In this document: one piece after another, positions 11,327-33,795 of the stretch | How the letters are laid out: every line of letters begins with the position of its first letter | Numbering within the stretch: position 1 is the first letter of the stretch | IMG/VR virus record: IMGVR_UViG_2526164599_000010 | Direction: 5' to 3' (one strand) | Length of the DNA stretch: 37,768 nucleotides | Source: a virus | Taxonomy: Duplodnaviria > Heunggongvirae > Uroviricota > Caudoviricetes | Made by a program: the position numbers and the translations under genes | Notes under the pieces: generated by a model | Told to the model about the DNA's origin: nothing | Databases searched by the model: none | Seen by the model: only the letters and a program-made list of their open reading frames with translations

Positions 11327-11330
11327 GGTT

Positions 11331-13499: not shown

Positions 13500-13550
13500 T
13501 CCGGGCCACTTTTCAGAATAACGCCAATCGCTGTCGCCGCTTTCTCAATA

Positions 13551-13985: not shown

Positions 13986-13994
13986 TGTTTCCCC

Positions 13995-14351: not shown

Positions 14352-14360
14352 AAATGCTCC

Positions 14361-15848: not shown

Positions 15849-16051
15849 TTCGATTTACTCCGTTTTTTCGGCGCAGCGTCGGTATCATCCGCCGTGTTTT
15901 CGGTGCTCCCGACTTCAACCACATCACCGGCTGCAAGGCGACGTATCCAGAAACTGTTACGGGGCTTTTCTTCTCCCTCAGACGCCAGTAATTTCATCGT
16001 GAGCGGGTCACGGATGGCTTTTCCCGCTGCGGGTTTAATTTTCAGCATCAT
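15845..16051 (-). CDS. Small virion/assembly protein (Mu gp38 position)
   Basis: 68-aa ORF; ATGA overlap with L. Confidence 0.55.
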
Positions 16052-16583
16052 GATCCTTTTCCTGATTCACATTGATATGTGCGGCAAATTCCGGGGTTTC
16101 GTCCGGGAATTTCCAGGTCTGCCAGTGACGCTCGTAATCATCCAGCGAATCCATGTCCACCACAGACGGCAGCGGGGTAGTGCCACTGAACAGAACGCCG
16201 TAAAGCACCACACCGGCATTGATACGGTTGTCGTCACAAAGATTTCTGACCTGCGTCAGTCTCATCCCGGTGGTCGGGCCAAACGTCTGACCGTTAACAC
16301 CGGCAATCAGTCGCTCCACAATCTGATAAATACCGGGCCGGTTTACCGGTTCCCCGTTCAGCAACTCCGCCACGACAAAAAATGCCCAGCGACTTTCAAC
16401 TTCCCGACGCGTACGCCCCTCACCACAGCCCATCCATGCCAGAAATACCGATGGCGGGGCCAGAAAGAGACGGTGCACATCCTCGTTAGTCCATGTGCCG
16501 GTAAGGGGTTCCACCTGCCGCAGGGTTGCCCCAAACAACTCACGAACGCGCGCCAGCAGTGCGGCTTCGGTTTCTTCCAGCAT
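16035..16583 (-). CDS. K: Head-tail joining / tail completion protein (Mu K position)
   Basis: 182-aa ORF; conserved Mu order. Confidence 0.6.
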   Translation of the reverse strand: MLEETEAALLARVRELFGATLRQVEPLTGTWTNEDVHRLFLAPPSVFLAWMGCGEGRTRREVESRWAFFVVAELLNGEPVNRPGIYQIVERLIAGVNGQTFGPTTGMRLTQVRNLCDDNRINAGVVLYGVLFSGTTPLPSVVDMDSLDDYERHWQTWKFPDETPEFAAHINVNQEKDHDAEN

Positions 16584-17008
16584 CAGATAAACCCCTTCTG
16601 TTTTCGTGAAAAAACAGGTGGATCAGACTGAACCTGCACAAGATCCTCTCCCTCCGGCGAGGCTGCCGTTCTGCTTTCCACGCCGGGATCTGTTTTGCCA
16701 TCGCGCACCTGTTCCAGCCAGCGCACCGTGTCCCTGTAAGTTGCGGTGATCTGCTCGGTGGGTTGTGATTCATTCAGATAAAACCAGGCCACCACGCAAC
16801 ACTGCCGTTTCAGCAGTGAGGGGACGACGGTAAGCGGCAGAACAAAGCGCGCGGCGAGATAGCCATCAATAAAGGCCGAAGCATCTGCCAGTGCCTGTTC
16901 TGCCACGGCATCATCCGGCTGCCCGTCCGCTGTTTTAGGGCGGGTGAGAATATCCAGCCGCGTACGTGTATAGCGGGCGCACAGGTCATTTACCGTCGCG
17001 TAATTCAT
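16583..17008 (-). CDS. J: Head completion protein (Mu J position)
   Basis: 141-aa ORF; conserved Mu order. Confidence 0.6.
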   Translation of the reverse strand: MNYATVNDLCARYTRTRLDILTRPKTADGQPDDAVAEQALADASAFIDGYLAARFVLPLTVVPSLLKRQCCVVAWFYLNESQPTEQITATYRDTVRWLEQVRDGKTDPGVESRTAASPEGEDLVQVQSDPPVFSRKQKGFI

Positions 17009-17415
17009 GCATCCGCCTCAGCCAGCGCCGCTTTGATTTGCGCACTGCTCACCGGTTCCCCCAGCGCCGCACTGACGGCTTTCACTTTGGGTTCTCCCCC
17101 TGCGGTAAAGTGCTCCGGGTTTGCCTTATCCAGACCGGCAACGGTCGCACGGATACGGGTATTCAGATCGCCCACACCCAGAACGTCCAGCCCCCCAGCC
17201 TCAGCGAGCGTTTCTGCTGACGATGCAGATACCACAGACAGCACGCTGTCGGCACGAATGATCGCCAGTTGTTCTTCGGTGACTTCCACGGTGTTTTCGC
17301 CACGCGTAAAGGCGATTCCGGCGCGGCGGTAGACCGGACGAAGGCATTTAATAATCGCCGTGCAAGTGATGCGAGAAGTGTCCAGCCGTTGTGAATTAAG
17401 CGAAGTGCCTGACAT
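17005..17415 (-). CDS. Head-associated protein (Mu gp35 position)
   Basis: 136-aa ORF preceded by AAGGAGGAG; directly downstream of the capsid gene and its terminator. Confidence 0.65.
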   Translation of the reverse strand: MSGTSLNSQRLDTSRITCTAIIKCLRPVYRRAGIAFTRGENTVEVTEEQLAIIRADSVLSVVSASSAETLAEAGGLDVLGVGDLNTRIRATVAGLDKANPEHFTAGGEPKVKAVSAALGEPVSSAQIKAALAEADA

Positions 17416-17449
17416 AACACATGCTCCTCCTTTTCCTTTAAATCAGGTT

Positions 17450-17473
17450 AAAAGGCGGTCTGAACCGCCTTTT
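17450..17473 (-). terminator. Intrinsic terminator / attenuator immediately after major capsid gene T
   Basis: Minus strand reads AAAAGGCGG-TTCAGA-CCGCCTTTT (9-bp stem, A- and T-tracts), 8 nt after the T stop. Confidence 0.7.
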
Positions 17474-17481
17474 AATGACGG

Positions 17482-18399
17482 TTACAGGTAGTCAGCGACA
17501 ACCAGTTGCAGCTTGCCCTTCATCTCGTTGGAGACGGTGGTATTGCCATCCGCGAACAGTTCACGGTTAAGCAGTTGCTCTGCGGCTTTTTCCAGCCCGA
17601 CCGGTACAACGATATGCGTCGGCTTCAGGCCCAGCTTCTTACCGCCATCACCTTCAAAAGATCGCATCAGTTGCCAGCCCTTCCAGAGGTTATCCAGCGT
17701 CAGATCGCCTTTTACCGCGACAGCCATCTGCCAGAAGCCGTAACCGGCAGCACGGCGGGCGCTGGCACCAAACAGGAACTCGTTATCCATAAAAACGTGG
17801 TCGTCATCGATACGGGTACGTGCGACCAGCTCCGGTTTGCGGCGCTCCTGGAAAATCAGCGGTTTGACTGCGCGGGAGCAGTCCAGCAGATAGAACGGCA
17901 GACCGCTGAAGCTGTCCTGCTCAACGATGTTGGAGGTATTAACCGCGCTGCCCGTGCCGTCCACATTCGGATATACCGGATGCTCCTTGTCGAAGAAGTT
18001 CTGACCGTCATAGCACGGCTGGGTAAAGCCATCTTTCAGAAGTTTAAAAATCAGCTCATCCGGCTGAACTGCCGCAGAACGGCCCATCTCCTGAAAAATC
18101 GGCGCATAAATACCCAGATTGTCATCCTCGAAGTCATCACGGGAAATACCCACGGTGCCTTCAAACGTTTTATTGGCGATGGAGTAGCCATGCGCTTCCA
18201 TTTGCTGAATGGTTCGCTTACCCACCCATTCTTTCAGGGTCGGGAATTTACCCAGCCAGCCATAGGTATTACTGCGGGTGGAAGAGTTCACCACCATTGC
18301 AATTTTGCTGTACTGCGACGGGGCGTCTTCAAGACCGCCCTGAAAATCCTTACGCCAGGAGGTCATCAGGGCTTTAATGGATGCCGGGGTGACAATCAT
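17482..18399 (-). CDS. T: Major capsid protein (Mu T)
   Basis: 305-aa ORF MIVTPASIKALMTSWRKDFQ...; size and position match the Mu major head subunit; followed by a strong terminator. Confidence 0.85.
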   Translation of the reverse strand: MIVTPASIKALMTSWRKDFQGGLEDAPSQYSKIAMVVNSSTRSNTYGWLGKFPTLKEWVGKRTIQQMEAHGYSIANKTFEGTVGISRDDFEDDNLGIYAPIFQEMGRSAAVQPDELIFKLLKDGFTQPCYDGQNFFDKEHPVYPNVDGTGSAVNTSNIVEQDSFSGLPFYLLDCSRAVKPLIFQERRKPELVARTRIDDDHVFMDNEFLFGASARRAAGYGFWQMAVAVKGDLTLDNLWKGWQLMRSFEGDGGKKLGLKPTHIVVPVGLEKAAEQLLNRELFADGNTTVSNEMKGKLQLVVADYL

Positions 18400-19481
18400 T
18401 TTTCTTGTTCCTGTTTCATTTTCAGATACTCAGCCTCAGTAATGCCGAGCGCCTTCACTGCTGCCTGTTCATCAGCAGACAGCACCGCCACCGCCGGTTT
18501 TTCCTGCGACGGGATTTTCGCTGTGGTGGTCTGCATGGCAGATAACGCAGCGATGGGCTGTTTTTTCTCAAGCTGTGCCGACAGTGCCGCCACGCCAATC
18601 TGACCGCCAAGCTGTTCCAGATAGGTACGTTCGCTTTTGAAAATGCGGCCTTCCTGTTCCGCCTTGTCCAGAACGGCGCTCAGGCTGGCTGTGGCGCTTT
18701 GTGCAGTCGCCTGTGCCAGTTCATCACGCAGGGCGTTGTAGCTTTCCACAGGGACGTATTTCGTCAGGTCAACGGCGGCTTTCTGTGCCTTTTCCAGTTC
18801 GGCGGATAACGACGCCACTTTTCCGGCATCTGTTTCGAGCGCATCAAGCGCACTCAGGGCCGCGCTGGCCTGTTCATCGGTGATGTCTGCATTTTCGGGG
18901 ACAGTCACCCCAAGACGCGCAAGCAGCTTGCGCAGCGTTTCATTCATGGGTTTGTTCTCCTGTTGAAGGATGTCGGGAAGGTCTGCCGCCAGTGCGGTCA
19001 GCTTTTTCATGCCGGTGGCACCGGGGTCATTGGTCAGCGCAGCAAGGCGGATTTGCAGCACCGCACCGGTGGCGGTGTCATACGGAAAAACCGCAGAGAG
19101 ATAACCAAATTCGCCGTCATCGATGCGCTGCTGGGCCGCCGCCGTCCAGCGTGGGTGGATAAATAACCCTTCACCTTCACGCCACTGCATTTCATCGGCG
19201 TTAAACCAGCCAGCCGCGACGAGTTGTTCCGGGGGTAATCCTTTGTCCTTACGTAGCTGGTTATGCTCGTAATCAATCAGCACGTCCTGGTTGAGCGCGC
19301 GAATGCCTTCAACCAGACGCCCGGCAATCTCACCGTCGATGAACCACCCCTGACCACCTGTCACATCAAACGGGCGACCATCACGGGCACTGAAATGACC
19401 GGCAGGCAATAGCTGGCACCAGCCGTCATCGTCAATGGACAGCGCATTCAGTGCGGCAATGCCAATCGCGTGTTTTTTCAT
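18396..19481 (-). CDS. I: Head maturation protease / scaffold (Mu I; the C-terminal scaffold Z is expected as an in-frame internal product)
   Basis: 361-aa ORF; N-terminal protease-like domain then Ala/Glu/Gln-rich coiled-coil scaffold-like C-terminus. Confidence 0.8.
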   Translation of the reverse strand: MKKHAIGIAALNALSIDDDGWCQLLPAGHFSARDGRPFDVTGGQGWFIDGEIAGRLVEGIRALNQDVLIDYEHNQLRKDKGLPPEQLVAAGWFNADEMQWREGEGLFIHPRWTAAAQQRIDDGEFGYLSAVFPYDTATGAVLQIRLAALTNDPGATGMKKLTALAADLPDILQQENKPMNETLRKLLARLGVTVPENADITDEQASAALSALDALETDAGKVASLSAELEKAQKAAVDLTKYVPVESYNALRDELAQATAQSATASLSAVLDKAEQEGRIFKSERTYLEQLGGQIGVAALSAQLEKKQPIAALSAMQTTTAKIPSQEKPAVAVLSADEQAAVKALGITEAEYLKMKQEQEK

Positions 19482-19677
19482 GTCCTGCTGCTCATCATGG
19501 TTTGTGAGCAGTCAGTTTGCGGGAGGTGCGGGAAAATCTGGGGTTATGCTATTTGAGTAATGGAGAAAGAAAGTGAAAGGAAGATAAAACGGGATTCATA
19601 CACCGTTAAATACCGGTTTAAAAATCCCGTGGCGCGTTTTAAAAAATCTGTGCGGCTGATTTCATGTCTGATTCCGT
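19482..19677. promoter_or_regulatory. G-I intergenic region: expected site of the Mu central strong gyrase site (SGS) and late promoter PI
   Basis: 196-bp non-coding gap at the centre of the prophage, between genes G and I where the Mu SGS is described; contains the 10-mer AGGTGCGGGA (19523..19532), shared with the lys upstream region. Confidence 0.6.
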
Positions 19678-20148
19678 TTATTGCCTCAGAGCGGCGCTGA
19701 CGCGTTTTCTGATGGCATCAAAAATTTCCTGTTCCCCGGTCTTATCCAGCCCCATATAAGGACGCGCAGGAACGCCTGCCGGGCGGGGTGCCATATCGGG
19801 TGTACCGCCCCACTGATGAATGGCAGCATAAATTTTTGGCGAACCAATCAGGGCATAATCCTGTCCATAATCGGTGGTAATGCTGCGTGCCAGATCGCCA
19901 TGCAGGGTAAGAATACTGCCCGGAACAAAACCATGATCCTGACGCCATGCCTGCCACGAATCGCTCCACGCTTCCCAGCCTTTCCCTGTATCCGGGTCTG
20001 CCTGCCGTTCAAATGCCTGTTCCGTGGATGACAGCAGCGCCGCAGCCATCACACGGGGAATGGCGCGGTCACGTGTAACGGTTCCCAGTTCATCCAGTGC
20101 AAGCTGAATACGTCGCACATCCACGGCAACGTTCATATCAAGACTCAC
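19678..20148 (-). CDS. G: Virion morphogenesis protein (Mu G position)
   Basis: 156-aa ORF; conserved Mu order. Confidence 0.7.
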   Translation of the reverse strand: MSLDMNVAVDVRRIQLALDELGTVTRDRAIPRVMAAALLSSTEQAFERQADPDTGKGWEAWSDSWQAWRQDHGFVPGSILTLHGDLARSITTDYGQDYALIGSPKIYAAIHQWGGTPDMAPRPAGVPARPYMGLDKTGEQEIFDAIRKRVSAALRQ

Positions 20149-21500
20149 TTATTCACCTCCACATGCCCCTCCAGTACGTCAATCATCCCGTCAGCAATCG
20201 CGGCTTCAAGCGACTGTGCAGATACGCGGCTGATACTGACCAGCACATCCGCACGGTCATTCTGTCTGCCGACTGTCTGTGATGTTCTGACCACAATCCG
20301 GGCCATGCCGTCACGGGTTGCCACAACATACAGCAACTGGTGGTTCTCCCTGTCCCACAATACCGCCTGTGGTTTTGCCATCAGCGACGGCAGACGCTGT
20401 AAATCCTCCGGTTTCAGGGCGGCATCAGAAGTGGTCGCCAGACTTTTCCCGTTCATCACAAGCAGACGGGCTGGCATATTCCCGGTGCGCTGATATACGG
20501 CCTCCGCCACGGATCCCGTCATAAAACCCAGCGCACGGACCTCATGTCCTGCCCGGCGTGATTTCGCCAGACGTTTAAGCCAGAGGGAAAAAGCAAGCTG
20601 ACGCTCCCGGCTGTTATTCAGCGTCTGAACAACCTGCTCACGCAGCTGCGCGTCACGAACTTCCACCAGTTTTCGAATCAGTGCCTGATCCGTACCAAAT
20701 GCCGCCGAACCGGGGTTATATGACCAGCCCACATCTGGCGTCATTTTTACCCGACCGTTGTCAAACGTGGTTGACGATGTGCGGAAAATCTCTCCGGTGC
20801 TTTCATCCGTACCGGCATCCACTTCGCGGGTATTCATGAATGACGCACCATAACTGACCTGTAGCCCCAGTTCTTTCATGCGGGCCGCAGACAGCGCCCG
20901 GACGCGACAGCGGCAGTTCCAGCCATTGGGCGGGTAATGCGTCTGCCAGAAAATGTCGTCATACTGGAAAACCATATTGTGCAGCCGCGCATGTTCCGGG
21001 CGTGTTCTGCCATCCATAACGGCAACGTACTGCCAGTACGGGTACAAATCGGCGGTATTCATCATCTGCGCATAACGTCCTGCCCCATACGCCGTACGGG
21101 TATTGACGTTATAAATGGTTGCCAGACGACGCGGACTGCCCAGTTCGATTTCCTTCGCGTTTCCCTCTGCATCCACGATGATTTGTTTTCCCCACCATCC
21201 GAGTTTTTGCAGCCGGGGGGCCAGTGTGCGGGTAAATTCCTCACGGGTGATGCCTTCACTGACAGCCCGCTCCACTTCCTCACGGATTGTGGTCAGGACA
21301 TCCATCCGGGTGGCTTTGGCAACGGTAAAGGCGCGGGCGTGCGCGTCTGCCAGTTGTTCGTACCAGTTCCAGGTGATGTTGTAGCCTTTGGCGCGGAAAT
21401 ACGCGACAGCCTCCTTTGGCGGGAGGCGTGCGGCATACGCCAGATCAATGGTCTGCTGCGGCATCCAGACGCCCCCATATATCGGCAACAAAAATGGCAC
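20145..21500 (-). CDS. F: Head morphogenesis protein (Mu F position); start uncertain because the ORF overlaps the H 3' end
   Basis: 451-aa ORF directly after the portal gene. Confidence 0.75.
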   Translation of the reverse strand: MPFLLPIYGGVWMPQQTIDLAYAARLPPKEAVAYFRAKGYNITWNWYEQLADAHARAFTVAKATRMDVLTTIREEVERAVSEGITREEFTRTLAPRLQKLGWWGKQIIVDAEGNAKEIELGSPRRLATIYNVNTRTAYGAGRYAQMMNTADLYPYWQYVAVMDGRTRPEHARLHNMVFQYDDIFWQTHYPPNGWNCRCRVRALSAARMKELGLQVSYGASFMNTREVDAGTDESTGEIFRTSSTTFDNGRVKMTPDVGWSYNPGSAAFGTDQALIRKLVEVRDAQLREQVVQTLNNSRERQLAFSLWLKRLAKSRRAGHEVRALGFMTGSVAEAVYQRTGNMPARLLVMNGKSLATTSDAALKPEDLQRLPSLMAKPQAVLWDRENHQLLYVVATRDGMARIVVRTSQTVGRQNDRADVLVSISRVSAQSLEAAIADGMIDVLEGHVEVNK

Positions 21501-22983
21501 GGGTCAGCATGTCGATAAGTTCTGCATCATCCATCTGCGGATATAATGAAGCGGCTTTGTTCATGGCGGCTTCCGGGCCATCTTTCAGCACAGAAAAAAT
21601 GACGGGTTTCAGCAGGGGGTCAACCGAACGCTGCCAGTCTTCCGGTGAGACGCCCATCCGGTCGATATCATCCTCCTGCGGGATATCTTCAGCGGATAAT
21701 GCGGCCTCTTTCTGCGAACCGTTATCCGGGACAACCGGTTGTATAGTAAACACGGCTTCATCACCGACCGGCTGTGGAATATGAAGTTTTTCCTGTATCC
21801 AGGAGACCGGAATACGCATTCCCGCCGCCAGTTTCGGAATGGCGTCAGACAGTGCCGTAATATCACCCGCTTCACTGGTATCAAATACAATGCCCGGCAG
21901 GCGGTTAATATCAATGGTGCTGTCACTGTTCAGTGCCAGCAGGGGATAAATCAGGTCACGGTTAATACTGCGGGCAAGCTGGCCCACATCCGCATTACGG
22001 ATTTCCCGGCGAACCTCATCATGCACTTCACCCAGCGACCGCGCACCTTTATCGCCAGCCTCTGTGGTCAGGGTGCCGCCCAGAATGGCTTTTGAAATCG
22101 CTTTTTCTGCCCAGCCAATCATCGCCATAAAAGGGTCTGACTGACCATCTGCGGCGCTCTGAAAATCCAGCGTCATCCCCATCGGAATAATGCCACCGGC
22201 ACGTCGCCCGATATCCATCACGGCCTGCATCAGCGTGGCTTTCTCGCGGTTCGTTGAGCCGGTCGGATATTTACCGACGCGCATGGGGAGTCCGTAAATT
22301 TCCAGAAACTCTGCAAAATCACGCACGGAATAGTTTTTAAAAATAAAAGGCCAGATAAGCGTGCGCACAAGGCCATTGGTGCCGACATACCCGGTGCGGG
22401 ATTTGGCCCGGTGCATAAACCAGCCGAACGGTTGCAGCTCCAGCCCGTGATAAGACGCATCACGCAGGCGTAATTCGTTCAGATTGTCGGGGTTCGCGCA
22501 AAATAGCGCCGGATCGCGATGATGCAGCGCCACCGGCACGCGCATTTTCCCCAGCCAGCCCCATTCAATCTCCTGCATGGAATAGCCCTTGAGAATGGCA
22601 TCACCGGCATCAAACAGGGCATCTTCAAACCACGCCGCATCATGCAGATATTCATTCAGCATGTCGGCGTCTTTTTTCTCCTGTGCGCTGGCATCACGTG
22701 CCGGAGCGATGCGCCATTCCAGCGCCTGAATGGCAAGGCGGCGTTTGCTCAGTTCGGAAAAAAGGTGGGTGTCCTTTTCTTCCATATCAAAGGCCAGGTC
22801 AGCCTGTGCTGTCAGATCACCGCGTTCGGCATCACGCAGCATCTGCGCGGCCCGGTTCGGCGTCACACCACTGGAAGGATGCTCCTGCGTACGCTTCATG
22901 ACCATTGCCAGCTCATCGCTGCGGGTCTGCATTTCATCGTCAAAATCAAACGGCTGCCCGGAAATATCCAGAATACGGCCCAT
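21445..22983 (-). CDS. H: Portal protein (Mu H position)
   Basis: 512-aa ORF following the large terminase gene; start overlaps the E stop. Confidence 0.8.
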   Translation of the reverse strand: MGRILDISGQPFDFDDEMQTRSDELAMVMKRTQEHPSSGVTPNRAAQMLRDAERGDLTAQADLAFDMEEKDTHLFSELSKRRLAIQALEWRIAPARDASAQEKKDADMLNEYLHDAAWFEDALFDAGDAILKGYSMQEIEWGWLGKMRVPVALHHRDPALFCANPDNLNELRLRDASYHGLELQPFGWFMHRAKSRTGYVGTNGLVRTLIWPFIFKNYSVRDFAEFLEIYGLPMRVGKYPTGSTNREKATLMQAVMDIGRRAGGIIPMGMTLDFQSAADGQSDPFMAMIGWAEKAISKAILGGTLTTEAGDKGARSLGEVHDEVRREIRNADVGQLARSINRDLIYPLLALNSDSTIDINRLPGIVFDTSEAGDITALSDAIPKLAAGMRIPVSWIQEKLHIPQPVGDEAVFTIQPVVPDNGSQKEAALSAEDIPQEDDIDRMGVSPEDWQRSVDPLLKPVIFSVLKDGPEAAMNKAASLYPQMDDAELIDMLTRAIFVADIWGRLDAAADH

Positions 22984-24638
22984 TACCAGCCCCCTCGTTC
23001 AAACTGGTGATAATCATCAAAATCATCGTTATCAACATCATCACCACGGTGGCGTGGTGGCAGCGCCTGTATGCTGTCCTCGTCGATAACAAAACCATTC
23101 ATATAAGACGCTCTGACAGCCATACAGAGCGCCACGGCAAAGTCGCCATGTCGTCGGCCTTTACCGCCTTCATCTTTTGTGCGCCCCTTATCAATCTGCG
23201 GAATACCTTTGTCCACCTTGATGTGGAGCAGGTCATCAAGTGTGGTCTGGTGCCGGGCAATCGTGATGTTCGGCGCTTCAAACTCGCCTTTCAGTTTTGG
23301 CATCCACTCCTGATACCAGGATGCGGTCAGATTCACACAGTCGATCATCTCCGGGCCATAAATCAGACGGGCGGCTTCTGCCAGATAACCGCCGTTACCG
23401 GTGGCATCAAATGCAGCGCCGGTAAAACGGGGCAAACGGGACAGAATGAATAAAAGGATTTGTCGCTGCTGGTCATAGGTCACATTACGCAGCTCCACGC
23501 GGAAACATTCGCGTTTGCGTAAGTCTGGAGTGATGGCAAGCGGCACAAACACCGTCAGGTCGCCACGGCGTGCAAAGTCTTCGCCCAGTACGTGTTTATT
23601 GAGCGGCGACAGCGCATCGAGCAACGGGAGCAGCTCCTGTTCACACCAGTCCTGAACGATGCCGTGGCGCATTTGTGGTGTCAGCGATTCAAAATCGTCC
23701 GGGGCTTCAAAACGCAGAATCGGGATATCCCGCGCTGGCGTCATGGCGGCTTCAATCAGCACGCGTGACAGATAAGCGCCCCCGGATTTTTTAGGAATGC
23801 AGCCGTATTCCTCGTCGGCACTCTCTTTATTCGGCGCATTCCGGTACAAGCCATCACGCCAGGCTTTTTCCGCTTCCGGCGACCACGGCTGATTCGTGAC
23901 GTAACAGATACGTCGGTACAACCCGTCAGCGATGGCATCATCCAGCGTGATGCGGTGAACGCTGTAATCCTTGCGCCCCTCGCGCGCATCCTGAATGTAC
24001 TGGTTAAACAGGTTATCGACGCCGTTATGTGTCGATATGATGCGCACGCTGGCACCCCACATGTTTAGTGCAAAGGCCGCTTTCAGCAGTTCGTCCAGGG
24101 CTTCATGGAATGCCGCCTCATCAATCACCACGTCCCCCTGCAAACCACGCAGGTTAGACGGGCGGCTTGACAGCGCCTGTATCTTAAATCCGCTGTTCGG
24201 AAAGCGGATCATGTAGGTGAGGATTTCTTCTTTTTTGTCGCTGTCCCAGAAGGTCTGCTCCCAGACGTCAGCCTTTGCCAGTTGGTTAAAGGCGCGGGCA
24301 AACAGGGCACAGGCGGCGATGTATTCCAGCGCCATTTCCTGACGGGAACCCACATAAAAGACGTTGCGACCACCGCGACGCTTCGGCTTTGCGGCCGTCA
24401 TGACATTGCGGCCCGCTTCAGCCCATGTCAGACCGGTTCGACGGGATTTTTCAGCAATACAAATCTGGCTTTCATCCTCAAACCAGCGGCGCTGATAGCC
24501 CAGAAAAACCGGTTCATTGCGGGGCTGTGCTTCCCCGATATCGGTCACGATATTCACGCCCAGCAGTCCGGCTTCCTTACGCAGGTCGATTTTGCGGGGC
24601 GCATGAAGGGCTTTAAGTTTGCTTTCTCTGGTACTCAT
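22983..24638 (-). CDS. E: Terminase large subunit (Mu E position)
   Basis: 551-aa ORF with an N-terminal ATPase-like region and a C-terminal nuclease-like region; position before the portal gene. Confidence 0.8.
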   Translation of the reverse strand: MSTRESKLKALHAPRKIDLRKEAGLLGVNIVTDIGEAQPRNEPVFLGYQRRWFEDESQICIAEKSRRTGLTWAEAGRNVMTAAKPKRRGGRNVFYVGSRQEMALEYIAACALFARAFNQLAKADVWEQTFWDSDKKEEILTYMIRFPNSGFKIQALSSRPSNLRGLQGDVVIDEAAFHEALDELLKAAFALNMWGASVRIISTHNGVDNLFNQYIQDAREGRKDYSVHRITLDDAIADGLYRRICYVTNQPWSPEAEKAWRDGLYRNAPNKESADEEYGCIPKKSGGAYLSRVLIEAAMTPARDIPILRFEAPDDFESLTPQMRHGIVQDWCEQELLPLLDALSPLNKHVLGEDFARRGDLTVFVPLAITPDLRKRECFRVELRNVTYDQQRQILLFILSRLPRFTGAAFDATGNGGYLAEAARLIYGPEMIDCVNLTASWYQEWMPKLKGEFEAPNITIARHQTTLDDLLHIKVDKGIPQIDKGRTKDEGGKGRRHGDFAVALCMAVRASYMNGFVIDEDSIQALPPRHRGDDVDNDDFDDYHQFERGGW

Positions 24639-24912
24639 GGGTGAAAAATCCGGTGTAAAACGTTACCGGCGAATCCAGGAACAACCGATCACCTGACCTG
24701 CCGTCGCCGGGCATCCGCCATTTTCATCTCCTCAGGACAACATCCTTAGTTGCTTTATGGTGGTATGCCATGAATTGCCTGAAGCCATGGCCTGAACAAG
24801 CACATCCCGAATCTGGTGTATCAACCGGACATCAGACAATGTTGCAATCCTGAAGGCTTTTTTATGGGCACTGATTAGCTGTGCTTTGTAATTATTTTTC
24901 ATAACGTAACGC

Positions 24913-25503
24913 CTACGCTTTCCCCAGCAGTACATCACGGATGCGCTGCTCCAGTTCTTCGCTGATGCCATCCTGCCCGCGCAGTTCTTCACTGACAGCG
25001 TTTGCCGCTTCTTCTGCGAACGCCTGGCGGATTTCTTTCTCGCGCCGGTGGCTGGACATTGCCGTGGATTCCAGACGCTGTGCCGCCAGCATGGCATTTT
25101 TCAGCAGGTCAATATCCACGTCAGATTCCGGGTTTTCGATTTGCCGCATCATGGCCTTAAAAAGCTGGCTGCGGGCCATTTCCAGAATCAGCTTTGTGGT
25201 TTCGCCCATTGGCTTGTCGCCAAGTTCTGCGGTCAGTGCTGACGTCATTTCACGCATCTGTCGCAGGTTATGGCCTACCTGCTCGACGTTCGTCGCGTAA
25301 CGGTTCAGACCGGAACGGGAGAGTTTCATCTCATCCGGCAGGCCTGCGTCTTCAATCAGTGCGTTAATTTCTTCCAGAATGCGGGCCTGTGGGATCGCCT
25401 TATCACGCAGCATTTCATGCAGCGTTTTACGTACGTTTTCCGGCAGTAAATCCACTTTTGAAGCCCGGCCCCGTGTTTTCCTGTCCATCACGCCTCCTGT
25501 CAT
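24913..25503 (-). CDS. D: Terminase small subunit-like DNA-packaging protein (Mu D / gp27 position)
   Basis: 196-aa ORF, charged and helical, upstream of the large terminase gene. Confidence 0.6.
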   Translation of the reverse strand: MTGGVMDRKTRGRASKVDLLPENVRKTLHEMLRDKAIPQARILEEINALIEDAGLPDEMKLSRSGLNRYATNVEQVGHNLRQMREMTSALTAELGDKPMGETTKLILEMARSQLFKAMMRQIENPESDVDIDLLKNAMLAAQRLESTAMSSHRREKEIRQAFAEEAANAVSEELRGQDGISEELEQRIRDVLLGKA

Positions 25504-25790
25504 GCACGTGGACGCGGACGCTTGACACCGGCAACGCGGGCGCGGCCTTCCGCCACATCCTGACCTCGGGAGGTCAGCGTTACGACATAAAAGCCGCGCA
25601 GGTTTTCCACGGTGACCAGTTGCTGCTCTGCCAGCCAGTCAATCTGGCCGCGAACCACATCGCGGGAAACGTTGTGTCCGTATGCATCCAGACAGTCCTG
25701 AAGGATGGATTCGTTGGCTTCGTTATTGCAGTCCATCAGGGAACGCAGGATGACCAGACGACGGTCTTCAGTCAGAATATCGTTAATCAT
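25500..25790 (-). CDS. Late protein (Mu gp26 position)
   Basis: 96-aa ORF, ATGA overlap with the downstream gene. Confidence 0.6.
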   Translation of the reverse strand: MINDILTEDRRLVILRSLMDCNNEANESILQDCLDAYGHNVSRDVVRGQIDWLAEQQLVTVENLRGFYVVTLTSRGQDVAEGRARVAGVKRPRPRA

Positions 25791-26104
25791 GAATTACTCC
25801 GGTTTACTGCGTTTTCAAGCAGTAGCTCCAGTTGATGGGAAAATGACTGCACCCGCTGGGACAGCACCCGGATATCGCCGGACAGCTCTGCAATACGCAG
25901 GCGCATTTCGTGTACATCTTCTGTGCCAGGGATGCTGGCGTAGCGGGTTTCCATTTCGGTCATCCGGTTTTCAAGACGCTCCACACGCTCGGTGCTGGCA
26001 AAACTACGACGCATCGCCCAGACGGCCCCACCGGCCACAACAGGCAACAGGTAAGGCCATAACGCTAAAACTGAAATCAAATCCATTATTCTGCTCCACG
26101 GCAC
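25787..26104 (-). CDS. Membrane protein in the lysis region (Mu gp25 position; candidate releasin)
   Basis: 105-aa ORF with an N-terminal hydrophobic segment (LISVLALWPYLLPVVAGGAVWA) and a charged coiled-coil tail. Confidence 0.6.
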   Translation of the reverse strand: MPWSRIMDLISVLALWPYLLPVVAGGAVWAMRRSFASTERVERLENRMTEMETRYASIPGTEDVHEMRLRIAELSGDIRVLSQRVQSFSHQLELLLENAVNRSNS

Positions 26105-26280
26105 CAGTGGCAGTAGTTCGCCATCGGCTGCTGTCTCAGCACATCAGGCCGCAGCTCACGACCGCAACCGGCACACAATACAGGCGGGTCATACGCCGCC
26201 GGGCGGGGAATATCACGGGTATCCCCCTGCCAGAGTTCAGCGAGCAGCAGCGCCACCGCCCGGTTCTGGTCTTCGTTCAT
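26086..26280 (-). CDS. Small Cys-containing protein (Mu gp24 position)
   Basis: 64-aa ORF with CxxC...CxxC motifs. Confidence 0.5.
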   Translation of the reverse strand: MNEDQNRAVALLLAELWQGDTRDIPRPAAYDPPVLCAGCGRELRPDVLRQQPMANYCHWCRGAE

Positions 26281-26578
26281 AAATTTCTTTCCTTCGGATC
26301 TCCTGTTCCCGGACTGATGCCTTGTCGCGGTTGCACTGCCCGAGCGCCATCAACAGGTCAGCATTCCAGAGAAGGGATGCTCCCCACGTCAGGGGCTGTG
26401 GCATGGGCGGAACGGGCGTTGCTTCTGTCAGTTCTGTATCAGTTTCGGGCAGGATCACCACCGATGGCACGGGTGCGTTTTTCGAGTTCCCGCAACCTGT
26501 CAGCAGCAACGGCAGGCACAGGACGAGTGCTGCAATTGTCACCAGTAATGGCGGTTGTAATTTTTTCTTTTGCATCAT
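26237..26578 (-). CDS. Outer-membrane spanin lipoprotein (o-spanin), overlapping the i-spanin gene
   Basis: Starts MMQKKKLQPPLLVTIAALVLCLPLLLTGC: signal peptide plus lipobox LLTGC; out of frame and overlapping the 3' part of the preceding TMD-protein gene, the classic overlapped spanin arrangement. Confidence 0.7.
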   Translation of the reverse strand: MMQKKKLQPPLLVTIAALVLCLPLLLTGCGNSKNAPVPSVVILPETDTELTEATPVPPMPQPLTWGASLLWNADLLMALGQCNRDKASVREQEIRRKEIYERRPEPGGGAAAR

Positions 26579-26825
26579 GATGTTCTGTCTCATCTGCCAG
26601 CCGTGCGGCACGATTTGCGGCACGGATAGCGGAAAATACCTGCATCGTCTGTTCCTGACCGTGTAACAACCATTCAGCAGTGTGGCGGGCCTGTTGCTCC
26701 GTCTGTAATTCACGGCGCAGCGTCTGGTTATCGTGGCGGGTGCTGTCCAGCCTGTGCCACAACACCCCAGACAGAACGGCGGTAAACACGGCTGCCAGCA
26801 GTAAACTTTTACTGGCGAAGGTCAT
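26439..26825 (-). CDS. Inner-membrane spanin (i-spanin)
   Basis: 128-aa ORF with an N-terminal TMD (SLLLAAVFTAVLSGVLW) and a charged helical periplasmic domain; immediately after the endolysin gene. Confidence 0.7.
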   Translation of the reverse strand: MTFASKSLLLAAVFTAVLSGVLWHRLDSTRHDNQTLRRELQTEQQARHTAEWLLHGQEQTMQVFSAIRAANRAARLADETEHHDAKEKITTAITGDNCSTRPVPAVAADRLRELEKRTRAIGGDPARN

Positions 26826-27327
26826 CCGCCCCCCTGATATTCCAGATTGCCATTTCCACTTCGCGACGGTTCATCAGTCCTTTCCATTTATGGCCTGCGG
26901 CAAACACCCAGCGGGCCATCTGGTCACGCGCTCCGGCGTAATCACCGGCATTGAGTTTTTTCAGCAGCGTTGATTTACTGAATGCGGTAACACCGGTGTT
27001 GAAAATAAATGTTGCCAGCGCCGTTTTCTGATATGGCGTCAGCGGCACCCTGACAAGACGATCGATTGCCGCATAAACCGGTTTTAAATCACTGTCGAGG
27101 AGAGCCATACACTCCGCATGGCTGTAACGGCGCATTTCGATATCCGGCCCGGTATGTCCCACACAGACCGTAAGCACACCGGCAATATCGCGGTAAGGCA
27201 TATAAGCGATATTTTCCAGATGGATCAGAGACTGACGGGTCATTTCCTGATAACCACCCACACCACCACCGGCAATCGTTGCCGCCAGCAGTGCGGCTTT
27301 CAGTTTTTTTGGTATCCCCGCCATCAT
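26809..27327 (-). CDS. lys: Endolysin with N-terminal signal-anchor-release (SAR) type segment (Mu lys)
   Basis: 172-aa ORF; N-terminal Gly/Ala-rich weakly hydrophobic segment (LKAALLAATIAGGGVGG) followed by a lysozyme-like domain; first late gene after C. Confidence 0.85.
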   Translation of the reverse strand: MMAGIPKKLKAALLAATIAGGGVGGYQEMTRQSLIHLENIAYMPYRDIAGVLTVCVGHTGPDIEMRRYSHAECMALLDSDLKPVYAAIDRLVRVPLTPYQKTALATFIFNTGVTAFSKSTLLKKLNAGDYAGARDQMARWVFAAGHKWKGLMNRREVEMAIWNIRGADDLRQ

Positions 27328-27398
27328 GCTTCCCTGAAAAAATGCTCTGATGGCAGTCTAAAAAATCAGGTGACAGGTGCGGGATTATGGTGACAGGA
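27328..27398 (-). promoter_or_regulatory. Candidate C-activated late promoter Plys region
   Basis: Non-coding interval between the C terminator and the lys start; contains AGGTGCGGGA (27375..27384), identical to the 10-mer upstream of gene I. Confidence 0.55.
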
Positions 27399-27423
27399 AA
27401 TAACCGGCAGGATGCCGGTTATT
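27399..27423 (-). terminator. Intrinsic terminator of the middle transcript, overlapping the C stop codon
   Basis: Minus strand reads TAA-CCGGCA-TCC-TGCCGG-TTATTTCCT; perfect palindrome AATAACCGGCAGGATGCCGGTTATT. Confidence 0.7.
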
Positions 27424-27841
27424 TTGGGCTTTCAGGTGAGAACAGATCAGGCTGATGACGCCGTGTATGCAGCTTTCTCTGGCGGGCAATAATCTGGTAG
27501 ATCTGCGGCTGGGACAGGCGGTACTGGCGACGCAGTTCTTCCATGTTACGACCATTGAACTGGCAGTAAAGCAAATCGTCGCGTAACGCGGTCAGGATAG
27601 TATCGCCACAGGGGATATAAAACTGCCGCCCGCCCAGAAAACAGGACAGGGCAACGGCCTGTTTACGGGCAAGCTCACGGGGATTGCTGACGTTCTGGCG
27701 TTTCAGTTCGTTTTCCAGAACATCAATCAGATCAACCACCGAACGGGGCCAGCGTGATTCCAGTTCCGGGGCCGGGATGTTATCAATATGTCCGATTAAC
27801 TGGCGAATTGCCGGATCGTGTTCAAATAAATCATGCTGCAT
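27419..27841 (-). CDS. C: Late-gene transcription activator C
   Basis: 140-aa ORF, last gene of the ~1.2-kb middle operon; C-terminal HTH-like region; paralogous in layout to Mor (both ..FNGRN..EL..Y..). Confidence 0.85.
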   Translation of the reverse strand: MQHDLFEHDPAIRQLIGHIDNIPAPELESRWPRSVVDLIDVLENELKRQNVSNPRELARKQAVALSCFLGGRQFYIPCGDTILTALRDDLLYCQFNGRNMEELRRQYRLSQPQIYQIIARQRKLHTRRHQPDLFSPESPK

Positions 27842-27854
27842 ATTTTCCCCCGGT

Positions 27855-27974
27855 TAACAGACAGAAAGATACACCACGGCACTGATGGTTATCAGAACCA
27901 CAAGGGCAATCACTTTTATCGCATTAATCAGCGTGGACGGCCCGAAACATTCATCACTGAATTTTCTGTACATG
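27855..27974 (-). CDS. Small hydrophobic peptide (39 aa) in the middle operon
   Basis: ATG..TAA ORF MYRKFSDECFGPSTLINAIKVIALVVLITISAVVYLSVC, too short for the ORF track; fills the gap between the upstream membrane-protein gene and C. Confidence 0.4.
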
Positions 27975-27982
27975 GTGCCCCT

Positions 27983-28345
27983 TTACCCGAACAGACGAGC
28001 GCGAAAACGAAAGGAGAGCCAGAACGTCAGCAATCCGGCCAGCGCCCAGATGACATGCTCAGGACCCGTTTTCAGTTGAGACGTTGCCATCACGGCTAAT
28101 CCCAGCCCGGACAGACTCCCCAGCCAGGTCAGCGGCCAGACGAACCGGGCAAAATGTTCAGGCACCCGGCAGCTCATTATCAGCGCATCCAGACAATCAC
28201 CGGCAACACATAAAGCAACACTGAAAACCGAGGCACAGCAAAACATCAGCGCGCGCCAGCCACAAAACAGACTTATCCACAATAACAGCGCCAGTAACAC
28301 CACCGATAAAAAATCAGGCCACTGACGAGCAGAACGCTCAGACAT
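27983..28345 (-). CDS. Integral membrane protein of the middle operon; start chosen at the internal ATG 28345, which has a GGGAGA Shine-Dalgarno
   Basis: Multiple hydrophobic segments; 8-nt overlap with the upstream ORF. Confidence 0.6.
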   Translation of the reverse strand: MSERSARQWPDFLSVVLLALLLWISLFCGWRALMFCCASVFSVALCVAGDCLDALIMSCRVPEHFARFVWPLTWLGSLSGLGLAVMATSQLKTGPEHVIWALAGLLTFWLSFRFRARLFG

Positions 28346-28556
28346 AATGTTTCTCCCTGTAAAGCAGGCAATGATGAAGAATTTCCGGCATATCAACTGA
28401 CTGCCAGCCTTTCATGTAATAACTGCCGTGGGTGCCATCATGACCGGTATAGTCGCGGGGTGCAGGCCGTGGCCCACCGGCGACACGGTGCAAAACCTCC
28501 TGACGCAGCCGCTCACGTCTGCCAAGATGAAAGGATGCATTCCAGCCTTTACCCAT
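28338..28556 (-). CDS. First gene of the middle operon (Mu gp18 position)
   Basis: 72-aa ORF just downstream of the early terminator. Confidence 0.5.
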   Translation of the reverse strand: MGKGWNASFHLGRRERLRQEVLHRVAGGPRPAPRDYTGHDGTHGSYYMKGWQSVDMPEILHHCLLYREKHYV

Positions 28557-28603
28557 GATGATTTCCCCCGGTACGGTTATTCATCACAGGATATTGAGGA
28601 CGT

Positions 28604-28628
28604 AAAAAAAGCCGGATTAACCGGCTTT
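28604..28628 (-). terminator. Intrinsic terminator at the end of the early operon, just after mor
   Basis: Minus strand reads AAAGCCGG-TTAAT-CCGGCTTT followed by TTTTTTTACG; located about 6 nt after the mor stop. Confidence 0.75.
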
Positions 28629-28633
28629 ACTGT

Positions 28634-29023
28634 TTACAGAAGTGAGGGCTGGTACTGGCGGTATTTCAGCCGTCGCATCCGGCGAATGGCCTTGTAAACC
28701 GTATTGAAAGTGACACCATAACGGGTGGTCAGTTCGCTGACGTTGCGACCGTTAAAATCATTCCAGATACGCAAATCCCGAATCAGCGAGTCCAGAACCT
28801 GACCGCGTGGAATGTAGACCTGACCGCCGCCCAGATGCTTACAGATAGCCACAACAATCTCCAGTGAATGGGCAGGATCAACACCCAGCCGGGACAATTC
28901 CCCGCGTAGTAAATCGTTCAGCTCCGCCAGCAGTGCCGGAAAGCGTGACGTATCCTCTGCGGGATTGTCAAGATGTGCCAGGATGGTGTCATCCTGCAAA
29001 TCACCAAATAAATCTTCCGTCAT
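28634..29023 (-). CDS. mor: Middle operon regulator Mor
   Basis: 129-aa ORF, last gene of the early operon, ATGA overlap with gemA; same family as C. Confidence 0.85.
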   Translation of the reverse strand: MTEDLFGDLQDDTILAHLDNPAEDTSRFPALLAELNDLLRGELSRLGVDPAHSLEIVVAICKHLGGGQVYIPRGQVLDSLIRDLRIWNDFNGRNVSELTTRYGVTFNTVYKAIRRMRRLKYRQYQPSLL

Positions 29024-29571
29024 TGTGCCATCCTCCGTGTCTTTCTGGCATGGGCATAAGCCGCCGTCATGGCATCATAGCCGCGCAGTTCACGCCCGGA
29101 CGGACTGACTGGCAACGGAAGCCCGTGACGGGAAAAGGCTTCACGAATACAGCGGATATGCCACTGCTTGAGAGTTTCGAGAACAATCAACAGGGTGTCG
29201 CCATGACACCACGCCAGCGTGGAAACGCCCTGTCCGCCATTACGTTTCGCCGTCAGGCGCTGAACATATTTATCCAGCGCCACATCACCGCCATCGGTAA
29301 TAAAACCGTCTTCTGCCATCTGCTGCCAGACTTTGTATACCTTCTCGCGGGGCGTGACATGCCCCTTAAAGCGGCGACGTGGATGTTTATTCAGCTTCTT
29401 AAAGCCGCGTTCTTTCATGGCATCGAGCACCTGTTCCAGTTGCGTAACCGTCAGCTCGCGGCAACTGATTTTGCCCGTTTTCTGCATCAGAAAAGCGCGG
29501 TAAGTGTCGTCGTCGAGTTGTAGCTCCCGACGGGCGACATGGATTAATTTAATCAGGGATGTGCGATTCAT
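29020..29571 (-). CDS. gemA: GemA protein
   Basis: 183-aa ORF directly upstream of mor; preceded by AGGAGGT. Confidence 0.75.
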   Translation of the reverse strand: MNRTSLIKLIHVARRELQLDDDTYRAFLMQKTGKISCRELTVTQLEQVLDAMKERGFKKLNKHPRRRFKGHVTPREKVYKVWQQMAEDGFITDGGDVALDKYVQRLTAKRNGGQGVSTLAWCHGDTLLIVLETLKQWHIRCIREAFSRHGLPLPVSPSGRELRGYDAMTAAYAHARKTRRMAQ

Positions 29572-29845
29572 GATCGTACCTCCGGAAAGAGGCGGTGCTG
29601 CAACACCGCCTGAATTTACACATCAATCAGAGAGGATTTTATGGAAAATAATGTACAACCTTATGATGTTGCAGGTTATGCGATTGCATCAGCACTGGTG
29701 CGCCTTCTGGTGAAGAAGGCGATCATCACCGCAGAAGAGGGCCAGGCCATTTTCAGCTCTTCAGCAGAGATTTTAAAAGATGCGCCTGCAATAAGAACAA
29801 GCCGCCGCGAAAACATGCAACTGTCAAAGATCATGGAAGACATTA

Positions 29846-30148
29846 TCAGTTCGTTAGACCCAGATGCTGACGGATCTCAAAAGCCTCAAACACATGAGCG
29901 TCAGTAACAATATCCTGGTCTGATAACCCCAGCCTGCGGCGGATGTACTCCTCGCGGGCTGTTTCATTTTGCAGTGCCACTACTGTTTCCAGACGATTCA
30001 TTTCGCGGTTGATAATGTCACGGACTTCTCTGGCGGTGAGATTATGCTTAATACCATATTCAACGATAGCGCGAACACGTTCCAGCATCCCTTTTTCAGC
30101 CATGACGTTATCAATATTAAGGGGAGTAAATTTATCTTCATTGTTCAT
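29846..30148 (-). CDS. Early semi-essential region protein, function unknown
   Basis: 100-aa ORF, translationally coupled to the upstream gene. Confidence 0.6.
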   Translation of the reverse strand: MNNEDKFTPLNIDNVMAEKGMLERVRAIVEYGIKHNLTAREVRDIINREMNRLETVVALQNETAREEYIRRRLGLSDQDIVTDAHVFEAFEIRQHLGLTN

Positions 30149-30468
30149 TTTGCGGCCCTCAGAATAAATTCAGGATAAAATTTCAGACTCATTTGCCGTA
30201 ACACATCCAGTGCAGCAACGGCTGCTGATTTATCGTTGCCATCAGCAATAGCGCGGAGATTTTCAATAATCCAGTGAGGACTCAGTGACTCAGCAATAAT
30301 GCCAAACCGGTACGCCATGACCTCATCAATAGCTTTTTCATGAGACGTCTCATATACAAAATTCACAAATTCATGCACTTCTTTTTTCGGCAAACCACCG
30401 GCAATCAGCAGGGCGGCAAGCTCTTCTGATTTTGAAAATACACCATTATTCATATCACTCACCTTCAC
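30145..30468 (-). CDS. Early semi-essential region protein, function unknown
   Basis: 107-aa ORF. Confidence 0.6.
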   Translation of the reverse strand: MKVSDMNNGVFSKSEELAALLIAGGLPKKEVHEFVNFVYETSHEKAIDEVMAYRFGIIAESLSPHWIIENLRAIADGNDKSAAVAALDVLRQMSLKFYPEFILRAAK

Positions 30469-33046: not shown

Positions 33047-33066
33047 TGTCAGCGCTCCTTTGCGAA

Positions 33067-33336
33067 TTAATGTTTAACCGCATTCACCGGACGTGGTACT
33101 AAATCACATTCAGCTTCCATACCCGCTTTCTTCATAGTGGTCAGCATCTCATCTTTGGCCTTTTTAATAATTTCAGGAGCCATAGTCAGGACGATATTTG
33201 CCAGTAAATCATGAGGCCCGGTATTTTCCGTTGGCGAGATATCTGCAAGACATGCTTTTGCATCCAGAACTTCTCTGCGCCCATTGCAACCGTCACTACT
33301 TTCCAGCCATGTAAACTCAAAGATAACTTTTGCCAT
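33067..33336 (-). CDS. Early region protein, function unknown
   Basis: 89-aa ORF. Confidence 0.55.
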   Translation of the reverse strand: MAKVIFEFTWLESSDGCNGRREVLDAKACLADISPTENTGPHDLLANIVLTMAPEIIKKAKDEMLTTMKKAGMEAECDLVPRPVNAVKH

Positions 33337-33347
33337 TTTGCTTCTCC

Positions 33348-33560
33348 TTATTGATTAACGGGCGTTGCATTTGTGATTTTGTTAAGTTCACAAAGCACAT
33401 TTTCTGCGTGATGATGGTTGCCGACATGAACGACCAGCCTGTGACCACCAACAAATTCAAAAGCAACACCGCCCTCAACAGTCGTTTCCATTACATTGAC
33501 ATTATCAAGGTTGATTAACTTACTAATTCCCAGATTATCGTGAATATTTATCACCATCAT
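33348..33560 (-). CDS. Early region protein, function unknown
   Basis: 70-aa ORF. Confidence 0.5.
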   Translation of the reverse strand: MMVINIHDNLGISKLINLDNVNVMETTVEGGVAFEFVGGHRLVVHVGNHHHAENVLCELNKITNATPVNQ

Positions 33561-33567
33561 TTAAATG

Positions 33568-33795
33568 CTATCTCCAGATTATCTGACAACCATTAAGACG
33601 GGCCGTCCATACAGAACGGGCCACCCCGGACTTATGCTCCATAATTCTGACCGCGTTTTTTACCAGTTCCACCGGTGGGTAAGTGATTTCAAGAATCGGA
33701 CGCGCCACGCCGAGATATGATTCATTTACATGGCTCCCGCGCGCCTGTAACCAGTTCTGCGCATCCGTTGCCATTTTTATATTTCGGGCCATCAT
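33568..33795 (-). CDS. First small gene after B; position and size fit Mu kil (host-killing protein), assignment by position only
   Basis: 75-aa ORF 15 nt downstream of the B stop. Confidence 0.6.

Follow-up and report, generated by a model that had tools for sequence, protein, structure and literature searches.

Why should 274 bp separate the two terminase genes of a phage whose relatives mostly keep them side by side? The window analysed here, a stretch of 37,768 nt from IMG/VR virus record IMGVR_UViG_2526164599_000010, holds a Mu-like (Muvirus) genome in reverse orientation, with gp27/D, gp28/E (TerL) and the interval between them all on the minus strand. The gp27 stop codon (TAG, 24915–24913) and the TerL start codon (ATG, 24638) leave 24639–24912 between them. 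A preliminary description of this DNA had drawn attention to the interval and, within it, to a 56-codon frame that opens with an ATG at 24902, 10 nt past the gp27 stop, and ends at 24732; all of these coordinates proved correct, and the translation of the frame was identical to the one quoted there. We propose that the interval is probably what erosion has left of an optional cassette of accessory genes (a moron slot); these genes are called ORF-A, ORF-B and ORF-C below. The 56-codon frame, ORF-A, would be the sole intact gene of this cassette in the window, and the remaining 93 bp would be scars (Table 1). The gp27 ORF as listed by the ORF program (24913–25503, MTGGVMDRK...) opens 5 codons upstream of the Mu-annotated start (MDRK..., 24913–25488), which is the one tabulated here.

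Table 1. Coordinates of the features at the gp27/TerL junction, and of the related gene gp30/F, in the window.
Feature	Position	Strand	Remarks
gp27/D (DUF3486, putative small terminase subunit)	24913..25488	-	Left flank; Pfam Phage_Mu_Gp27, E 1.4e-52
ORF-A Shine-Dalgarno, degenerate AGGCG	24910..24914	-	Overlaps gp27 TAG; AGGAG / AGGAGG in other ORF-A lineages
ORF-A, intact 56-aa CDS, MKNNYKAQL...RMLS	24732..24902	-	Stop TGA 24734-24732; pI 11.1, 6.4 kDa
ORF-B 5′ remnant	24689..24733	-	Intact GAGGAG 24733-24728 and start ATGAAAATGGCGGAT; aligned with Tongde, RM8082 and L013
ORF-B 3′ remnant	24663..24712	-	Original TAA 24665-24663; out of frame with the ORF-B start
ORF-C deletion scar (200 bp) and conserved cassette right end ACACCGGATTTTTCACCC	24639..24662	-	Right end abuts the TerL start; from alignments
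gp28/E (TerL, large terminase subunit)	22983..24638	-	Right flank
gp30/F minor head protein (Phage_Mu_F + MuF_C)	20145..21500	-	Residues 45-93 of the 451-aa ORF are the paralogous counterpart of ORF-A

Inserts at the gp27/TerL junction

By whole-window BLAST and alignment, homology to Mu was last seen at the gp27/D stop codon and came back at the gp28/E start codon, two positions that lie 7 bp apart in Mu itself. The window and Mu were collinear at ~98% over 5542–24638 and 24917–30151, with the interval as the only break in the late region. When a 1-kb query across the junction was used, Mu, D108, SfMu, four Yersinia Mu-like phages and others matched as two pieces lying 267 bp closer together. 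Among these matches only Yersinia phage Tongde carries an insert at the junction, one that is longer than the insert of the window.

A survey of IMG/VR with a gp27 profile returned 63 loci (36–100% identity to the window gp27), 62 of which were scorable. The gap between gp27 and TerL measured –4 to +14 nt in 43 loci, 39–43 nt in 4 and 237–633 nt in 15; one of the 15 long-gap loci (L068) represents a broken gp27 and was left out, giving 14 real cassettes. The D–E junction was also found in 44 out of 5,426 complete E. coli genomes, 31 of them with the Mu-like 7 bp and 13 with a cassette (274 bp in nine, 613 bp in one, and 437 bp, with ORF-B and ORF-C but no ORF-A, in three). Overall, a cassette occupies this junction in about a quarter of the relatives. 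In most Mu-like phages, Mu, D108 and SfMu among them, D and E directly adjoin or overlap each other (–4 to +14 nt). Tight D–E coupling looks ancestral, given that this arrangement is found without exception in the most distant lineages.

The inserted DNA differs in composition from its surroundings, with a GC content of 42.7% for ORF-A, 43.1% for the full RM8082 cassette and 37.9% for the ORF-C part, versus 55.0% for gp27 and 54.7% for TerL. One IMG/VR locus (L016) has a gp27 that is 100% identical to that of the window next to an ORF-A that is just 46% identical, revealing a sharp mosaic boundary. No target-site duplication or mobile-element ends were seen to flank the cassette, beyond the trivial ATGA of the two start codons.

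These data bear on the possibility, raised in the preliminary description, that the interval is a packaging-related cis site. The location between both terminase genes would suit a site recognised for packaging, or a spacer through which TerL expression is regulated. Moreover, the cassette uncouples TerL translation from gp27, since cassette-free phages have the gp27 stop and the TerL start overlapping or 1–14 nt apart, and TerL in the window has no recognisable Shine-Dalgarno sequence at 24639–24660 (TTTTTCACCC-ATG); TerL expression is probably altered as a side effect. The interval is nevertheless missing from Mu, D108, SfMu and most relatives (43 of the 62 scored loci), despite their near-identical terminases, and Mu-like packaging begins at the phage end, in the adjoining host DNA (PMC5557969). 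The interval thus lacks both marks of a pac or cos site, namely conservation along with the same terminase and a position at the start of packaging. An Rfam scan of the interval gave no match at E <= 1, RNA folding of the interval was nothing unusual when compared with shuffled sequence (MFE z-score 0.12), and a consensus scan of 24639–24912, which is weak negative evidence, revealed neither a sigma-70-like promoter nor a terminator. Finally, the conservation of ORF-A tracks codons and gene boundaries, not the nucleotide sequence, and the 93 bp that follow it align as scars of other genes. We therefore regard a cis element as very improbable. The apparent anomaly would then resolve into a decaying accessory slot, with no hidden packaging signal. 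By breaking the near-universal translational coupling of the terminase genes, the cassette also provides a natural experiment on the amount of TerL that a Mu-like phage needs. The TerL start codon is GTG in the SE11-type and L013/L014 cassettes.

The proposed accessory cassette and its erosion

In its complete form the cassette measures 613–633 bp and comprises ORF-A (56–69 aa) and ORF-B (63–67 aa) on the late strand, followed by a convergent ORF-C (61–65 aa) on the opposite strand. The ORF-B start overlaps or adjoins the ORF-A stop, which is itself overlapped by the GAGGAG ribosome-binding site of ORF-B. The 613-bp form was found in the E. coli RM8082 prophage, in IMG/VR contigs L013/L014 and in metagenomic contigs L005–L008. 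When aligned, the junctions make up a size series with clean internal deletions, running from 613–633 bp (A+B+C) over 433–476 bp (SE11 type, containing ORF-B and ORF-C without ORF-A; 437 bp in SE11 itself), 416 bp and 274 bp to the 7 bp of Mu. The 416-bp form, carried by Tongde and a Cronobacter prophage, has lost ORF-C through a 200-bp deletion. In the window, which shares the 274-bp form with nine E. coli genomes and two IMG/VR contigs, the 200-bp deletion took ORF-C and a frameshifting deletion of 139 bp (136 bp when compared with Tongde) wrecked ORF-B, leaving ORF-A intact.

Because of the 139-bp deletion, the ORF-B start now reads a frame of only 12 codons (MKMADARRRQVR followed by a stop, 24727–24689), with the deletion joint located between 24713 and 24712. 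The stretch past ORF-A had earlier been described as ~90 bp of non-coding DNA. Its length holds up (93 bp to TerL), but the alignments replace the plain non-coding reading by the scars of two further genes.

The 14 IMG/VR cassettes consist of A+B+C (five), A+B (one), A with a deleted B (A+deltaB; two), B+C (two), B alone (one) and A with a 162-aa ORF (three). ORF-A, present in 11 of the 14 and accompanied by three different downstream partners, is the most persistent element. The 162-aa ORF, which is unrelated to ORF-B and ORF-C, was seen in three IMG/VR Mu-like contigs and is split in L039; on the opposite strand it follows ORF-A in place of ORF-B and ORF-C (L019 3236–3724 and L038 3245–3733, minus), the 3′ ends overlapping. 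The convergent pair of ORF-B and ORF-C was observed with ORF-A (L003 2710–3133, RM8082) and also without it (L015 702–1071, E. coli SE11). The ORF-C alleles have a common N-terminus (MKEKLTIDQKI[EQ]IA), after which they diverge strongly (41–47% identity).

Full-length ORF-B corresponds to phrog_21398 (E 2e-39) and ORF-C to phrog_25148. Neither of the two had a match in Pfam or NCBIfam, and the 162-aa ORF had no usable Pfam match. PADLOC returned no match for ORF-A, ORF-B or ORF-C, and for the 162-aa ORF only a chance-level hit to Csx15 (E 0.008). Foldseek found no match for the ORF-B model in the PDB at E <= 0.001, and tblastn of ORF-B against 50,697 phage records retrieved Tongde alone. ORF-B was also considered as the continuation of a decayed muF copy, an idea that was discarded because ORF-B matches its own PHROG only and shows no similarity to gp30.

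With its patchy presence, precise insertion between conserved genes, low GC content and small exchangeable genes, the cassette resembles the morons of lambdoid phages and ORFs 3–5 of SPP1, the latter being accessory genes between the terminase and portal genes (PMC6316719). Presence or absence with breakpoints at gene boundaries was observed here, as was a composition differing from that of the surroundings. The classical definition of a moron further includes an autonomous transcription unit. Unlike such morons, ORF-A shares the orientation of the late operon, with which it is nearly coupled, and neither a promoter nor a terminator of its own could be detected; in the full cassette, autonomous transcription may apply to the opposite-strand ORF-C only. 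The gp27/TerL junction of Mu-like phages can be seen as a recurrent small-gene hot-spot, hosting at least four exchangeable families (A, B, C and the 162-aa ORF) that automatic annotation mostly misses. No mention of this hot-spot was found in the literature compared, including a paper on Yersinia Mu-like phages in which the words terminase, insertion, Tongde and hypothetical do not occur.

ORF-A as a gene and its likeness to the minor head protein F

The length of the ORF-A frame by itself is weak evidence for a gene, because an ATG-initiated ORF of at least 56 codons was obtained on the minus strand in 4.4% of mononucleotide shuffles of the interval. What raises ORF-A above chance is that its frame stays open in each of the related loci examined, together with the absence of the interval from Mu. 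In total, ~11 alleles were found that share 23–91% identity with the window copy, and across loci the ORF-A start constantly lies 8–10 nt past the gp27 stop. The preliminary description had named beforehand the loss of the open frame in homologous intervals as the observation that would speak against a small ORF; in this comparison the frame was never broken. Its small-ORF reading is thus supported by diverged alleles that all remain open, by their position directly after gp27 and by the homology to the N-terminal part of MuF that is described below. The Shine-Dalgarno sequence, also called weak there, is indeed so in the ORF-A lineage of the window, which has AGGCG where three other lineages have AGGAG or AGGAGG in the same position. 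The AGGCG version is not peculiar to the decayed form, because alleles within intact A+B+C cassettes (RM8082, L013) have it too.

Pairwise dN/dS values for ORF-A were 0.18–0.46 (about 0.2–0.5) for most pairs, 0.69 for the window versus Tongde, and ~1.0–1.3 among the L010, L019 and L038 alleles. Two of the latter (L019 and L038) carry the overlapping antisense 162-aa ORF, and the L010 contig ends short of that point. The constraint on ORF-A is real but weak. Most alleles conserve an AHxxAFxVA...G motif. Judged from these sequence comparisons, ORF-A represents a genuine family of protein-coding genes that diverges rapidly. AlphaFold2 predicted, at moderate confidence (pLDDT 73), that this small basic protein forms three helices (residues 3–20, 25–41 and 45–55). 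A difference between Tongde and the window near the ORF-A C-terminus was examined as a pair of compensating frameshifts. This explanation was dropped since the 'SWHTT' version also occurs in a 50%-identical allele (P0012), so that the two C-termini are rather two old alleles.

Database searches with ORF-A itself yielded little by way of known families. It had no Pfam family at E <= 1 and none in NCBIfam, and at E <= 10 the sole Pfam match was a weak one of the RM8082 allele to DUF7799. Three ORF-A alleles also matched phrog_30922, an unannotated PHROG. A profile search of 1.8 billion representatives revealed two small homologues (P0003 and P0012), a profile search of genome contigs gave no confirmed locus, and tblastn of a divergent ORF-A against the 50,697 phage records gave no match. 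Foldseek at E <= 0.001 found no BFVD match for the ORF-A model, an outcome that is unsurprising for a short helical bundle.

ORF-A could also be part of a pure relic, in which case the whole interval would be a functionless leftover of the stepwise-deleted cassette and the frame would still be open for lack of time. Two of the three cassette genes have already been destroyed in the window, the Shine-Dalgarno sequence of ORF-A is degenerate, and some of the dN/dS values lie near 1. Automatic annotation passes over ORF-A as well: PGAP annotates no gene at its position in 9 of 10 E. coli genomes, and it is left uncalled in the published annotation of Tongde. Moreover, the 274-bp copies share no less than 98.7% identity throughout, which points to one recent event, so that the intactness of ORF-A after the loss of ORF-B and ORF-C may only reflect recency. 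However, neither of the two deletions reaches ORF-A, and the gene persists next to all three of its partners without ever being disrupted. Most pairwise dN/dS values lie at 0.2–0.5, and the degenerate Shine-Dalgarno sequence is shared with the intact cassettes of RM8082 and L013. We consequently consider a pure relic unlikely.

A further alternative is that ORF-A serves as a C-terminal extension of gp27, reached by programmed frameshifting. The ORF-A frame is in fact free of stops for 65 codons upstream, to 25097, over the 3′ end of gp27, and one database entry (P0001) begins within this upstream extension. Yet the frame of ORF-A with respect to gp27 is +1 in the window, where the spacer measures 10 nt, but –1 in the L005-type lineage, where it measures 8 nt, and no conserved frameshift geometry is possible because this frame relation differs between lineages. 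Every ORF-A allele furthermore has its own ATG and a sequence resembling a Shine-Dalgarno, and the gp27 homologues surveyed all end at the same point. Such a fusion is extremely improbable.

The only relationship to a known protein led to gp30/F, the minor head protein encoded in the same genome. Residue numbers of F given here are those of the 451-aa ORF as listed (GTG start), which exceeds Mu F (439 aa) by 12 codons. BLASTP aligned ORF-A residues 4–42 with residues 45–83 of F (E 2e-5), and hhalign of the ORF-A family alignment with gp30 gave a probability of 93–94% (E 1.4e-7 to 2.7e-7) over ORF-A residues 4–50/52 and F residues 45–91/93. In a control covering every window ORF of 90 aa or more (91 in all), gp30 alone scored (94%) besides ORF-A itself, the next best reaching 1%. 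All six ORF-A family members tested matched phrog_220 ('minor head protein and DNA pilot') at profile positions 918–968; gp30 matches the same profile with E 7e-120, its residue 13 falling at position 887. In an exhaustive search of 1.8 billion representatives, the ORF-A HMM also matched residues 72–120 of a 959-aa MuF protein (E 8.7e-4). These sequence tests are not fully independent of one another. ORF-A and F have a motif in common, AHxxAFxVA ... [IV]R ... A ... G-x-[ST]-x-x-[ED]-F. Two other matches were judged spurious, namely a 2353-aa repeat protein (P0011), as the ORF-A profile also matches repetitive helical proteins with its positions 27–45, and the designed repeat protein 7rdr, the sole match of the ORF-A profile among PDB sequences, by way of the helix at 27–44. 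A search of PDB sequences with gp30 revealed no solved relative.

On this basis, ORF-A is a free-standing homologue of the helical N-terminal part of F (residues 45–93). The identity between ORF-A and the F of its own phage is just ~26–31%, and for this reason we see in ORF-A an old paralogous fragment and no recent duplication. It is a partial paralogue of MuF that stands outside the MuF family proper (MuF/SPP1 gp7; PF04233, phrog_220). Some 47–49 residues align and the AHxxAFxVA ... G-x-[ST] signature occurs in both, but ORF-A has 56 aa where F has 439–451, lacks the Phage_Mu_F domain core as well as MuF_C, and is basic, unlike the F segment. Consistent with this, the PF04233 domain model does not find ORF-A above its gathering score, and in the window gp30 the Phage_Mu_F domain (111 bits) covers residues 71–200, leaving the counterpart of ORF-A mostly upstream of it. 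MuF genes adjoin the portal gene on its downstream side (PMC5576092), whereas ORF-A, lying between gp27 and TerL, precedes the portal gene. The F of the window is ~98% identical to that of Mu, although ORF-A is absent from Mu, indicating that ORF-A and F do not co-vary.

Candidate roles of ORF-A and further features of the window

Since no promoter of its own was found, ORF-A is assigned to the late operon and would be transcribed within the lys–D–E transcript. Its translation would proceed from the weak Shine-Dalgarno sequence, by re-initiation 10 nt past the gp27 stop, or by both. ORF-A would be dispensable for packaging, since Mu and most relatives do without it.

One speculative role builds on the likeness to F: while heads are assembled or packaged, ORF-A, as a non-essential factor, would occupy or modulate the partner of the matching F segment, be it the portal, DNA or F itself. 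According to PMC6316719 and the titles cited there, SPP1 gp7 reaches the procapsid through its strong binding to the portal, and it binds DNA. We deem such a role unlikely, although it is our best guess; it might, for example, come into play in competition between related phages. A more specific version, which strikes us as quite improbable, would make ORF-A a mimic of the N-terminal module of F that is produced along with the terminase and competes for a partner on the portal or procapsid, either to disturb the head assembly of Mu-like phages that co-reside or superinfect, or to hide a portal- or terminase-associated surface from immune sensors of the host. MuF/gp7 proteins occur in about a third of tailed phages and their function is described as unknown (PMC5576092), a point against the mimicry idea. 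If this idea were true, the D/E junction would be a conflict locus, and ORF-B, ORF-C and the 162-aa ORF would be further exchangeable players. ORF-A may in any case offer a handle on MuF/gp7 function, since an excised and independently evolving copy marks the F segment as a separable functional module with a partner that can be searched for.

Alternatively, ORF-A might be expressed for a role outside head assembly, such as anti-defence, superinfection exclusion or a benefit to the lysogen, so that the likeness to MuF would tell of the origin of its fold only. Such a conflict gene would suit the patchy, low-GC and fast-evolving nature of the cassette and its sharp mosaic boundary. The neighbours of ORF-A vary and include two opposite-strand genes, ORF-C and the 162-aa ORF, which could be expressed from the prophage. 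The locus would also resemble the anti-CRISPR loci that lie inside the head operon of Pseudomonas Mu-like phages. In the JBD30/D3112 group, variable sets of 50–150-aa ORFs occupy one fixed junction of the morphogenesis operon (G/protease) in only some relatives. The likeness thus consists of variable small ORFs at one fixed junction in some members of a group of transposable phages; the differences are that the junction is D/E here, and that the cassette genes are not known to resemble Acr or Aca proteins, gave no defence-related match and include no identified HTH regulator. Against a conflict gene, none of ORF-A, ORF-B, ORF-C and the 162-aa ORF had a match among the Pfam, NCBIfam and PADLOC searches run for them, no promoter was found, and the sole homology signal is to a virion protein. 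We rate a conflict gene with incidental MuF ancestry as possible but doubtful, and as an alternative just as viable as modulation of an F partner. Within the cassette interpretation favoured here, nothing categorically new is called for: ORF-A is a new, mostly unannotated example of the small accessory genes of phage late operons, unusual in having arisen from part of a virion protein.

Elsewhere in the window, two breaks with respect to Mu were observed in the early region, namely ~290 extra bp (30152–30443) at Mu 7652–7664, near gp14/gp54, and ~500 bp (33062–33568) that are non-homologous to Mu 4538–5047, which holds the early genes E5/E6. Near the other end, positions 1–221 are an inverted copy (93–100% complementary) of 5489–5710, comprising the end of the constant part of the tail-fibre gene S and the inversion site. 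These arms flank ~5.3 kb, and the window contains none of gin, com and mom. The inverted left end looks like an assembly or contig end made from reads of both orientations of the G segment.

The invertible G segment itself contains an insertion sequence of the IS21 family (773–2896; ends TGTCAGCGCC and GGCGTTGACA, ACGG duplication) that encodes IstA (874–2046; rve and Mu-transposase C-terminal domain) and IstB (2162–2839). The element interrupts the equivalent of Mu 34389–34393, in the variable part of the alternative tail fibre S′, and has probably knocked out one host-range state of the phage.
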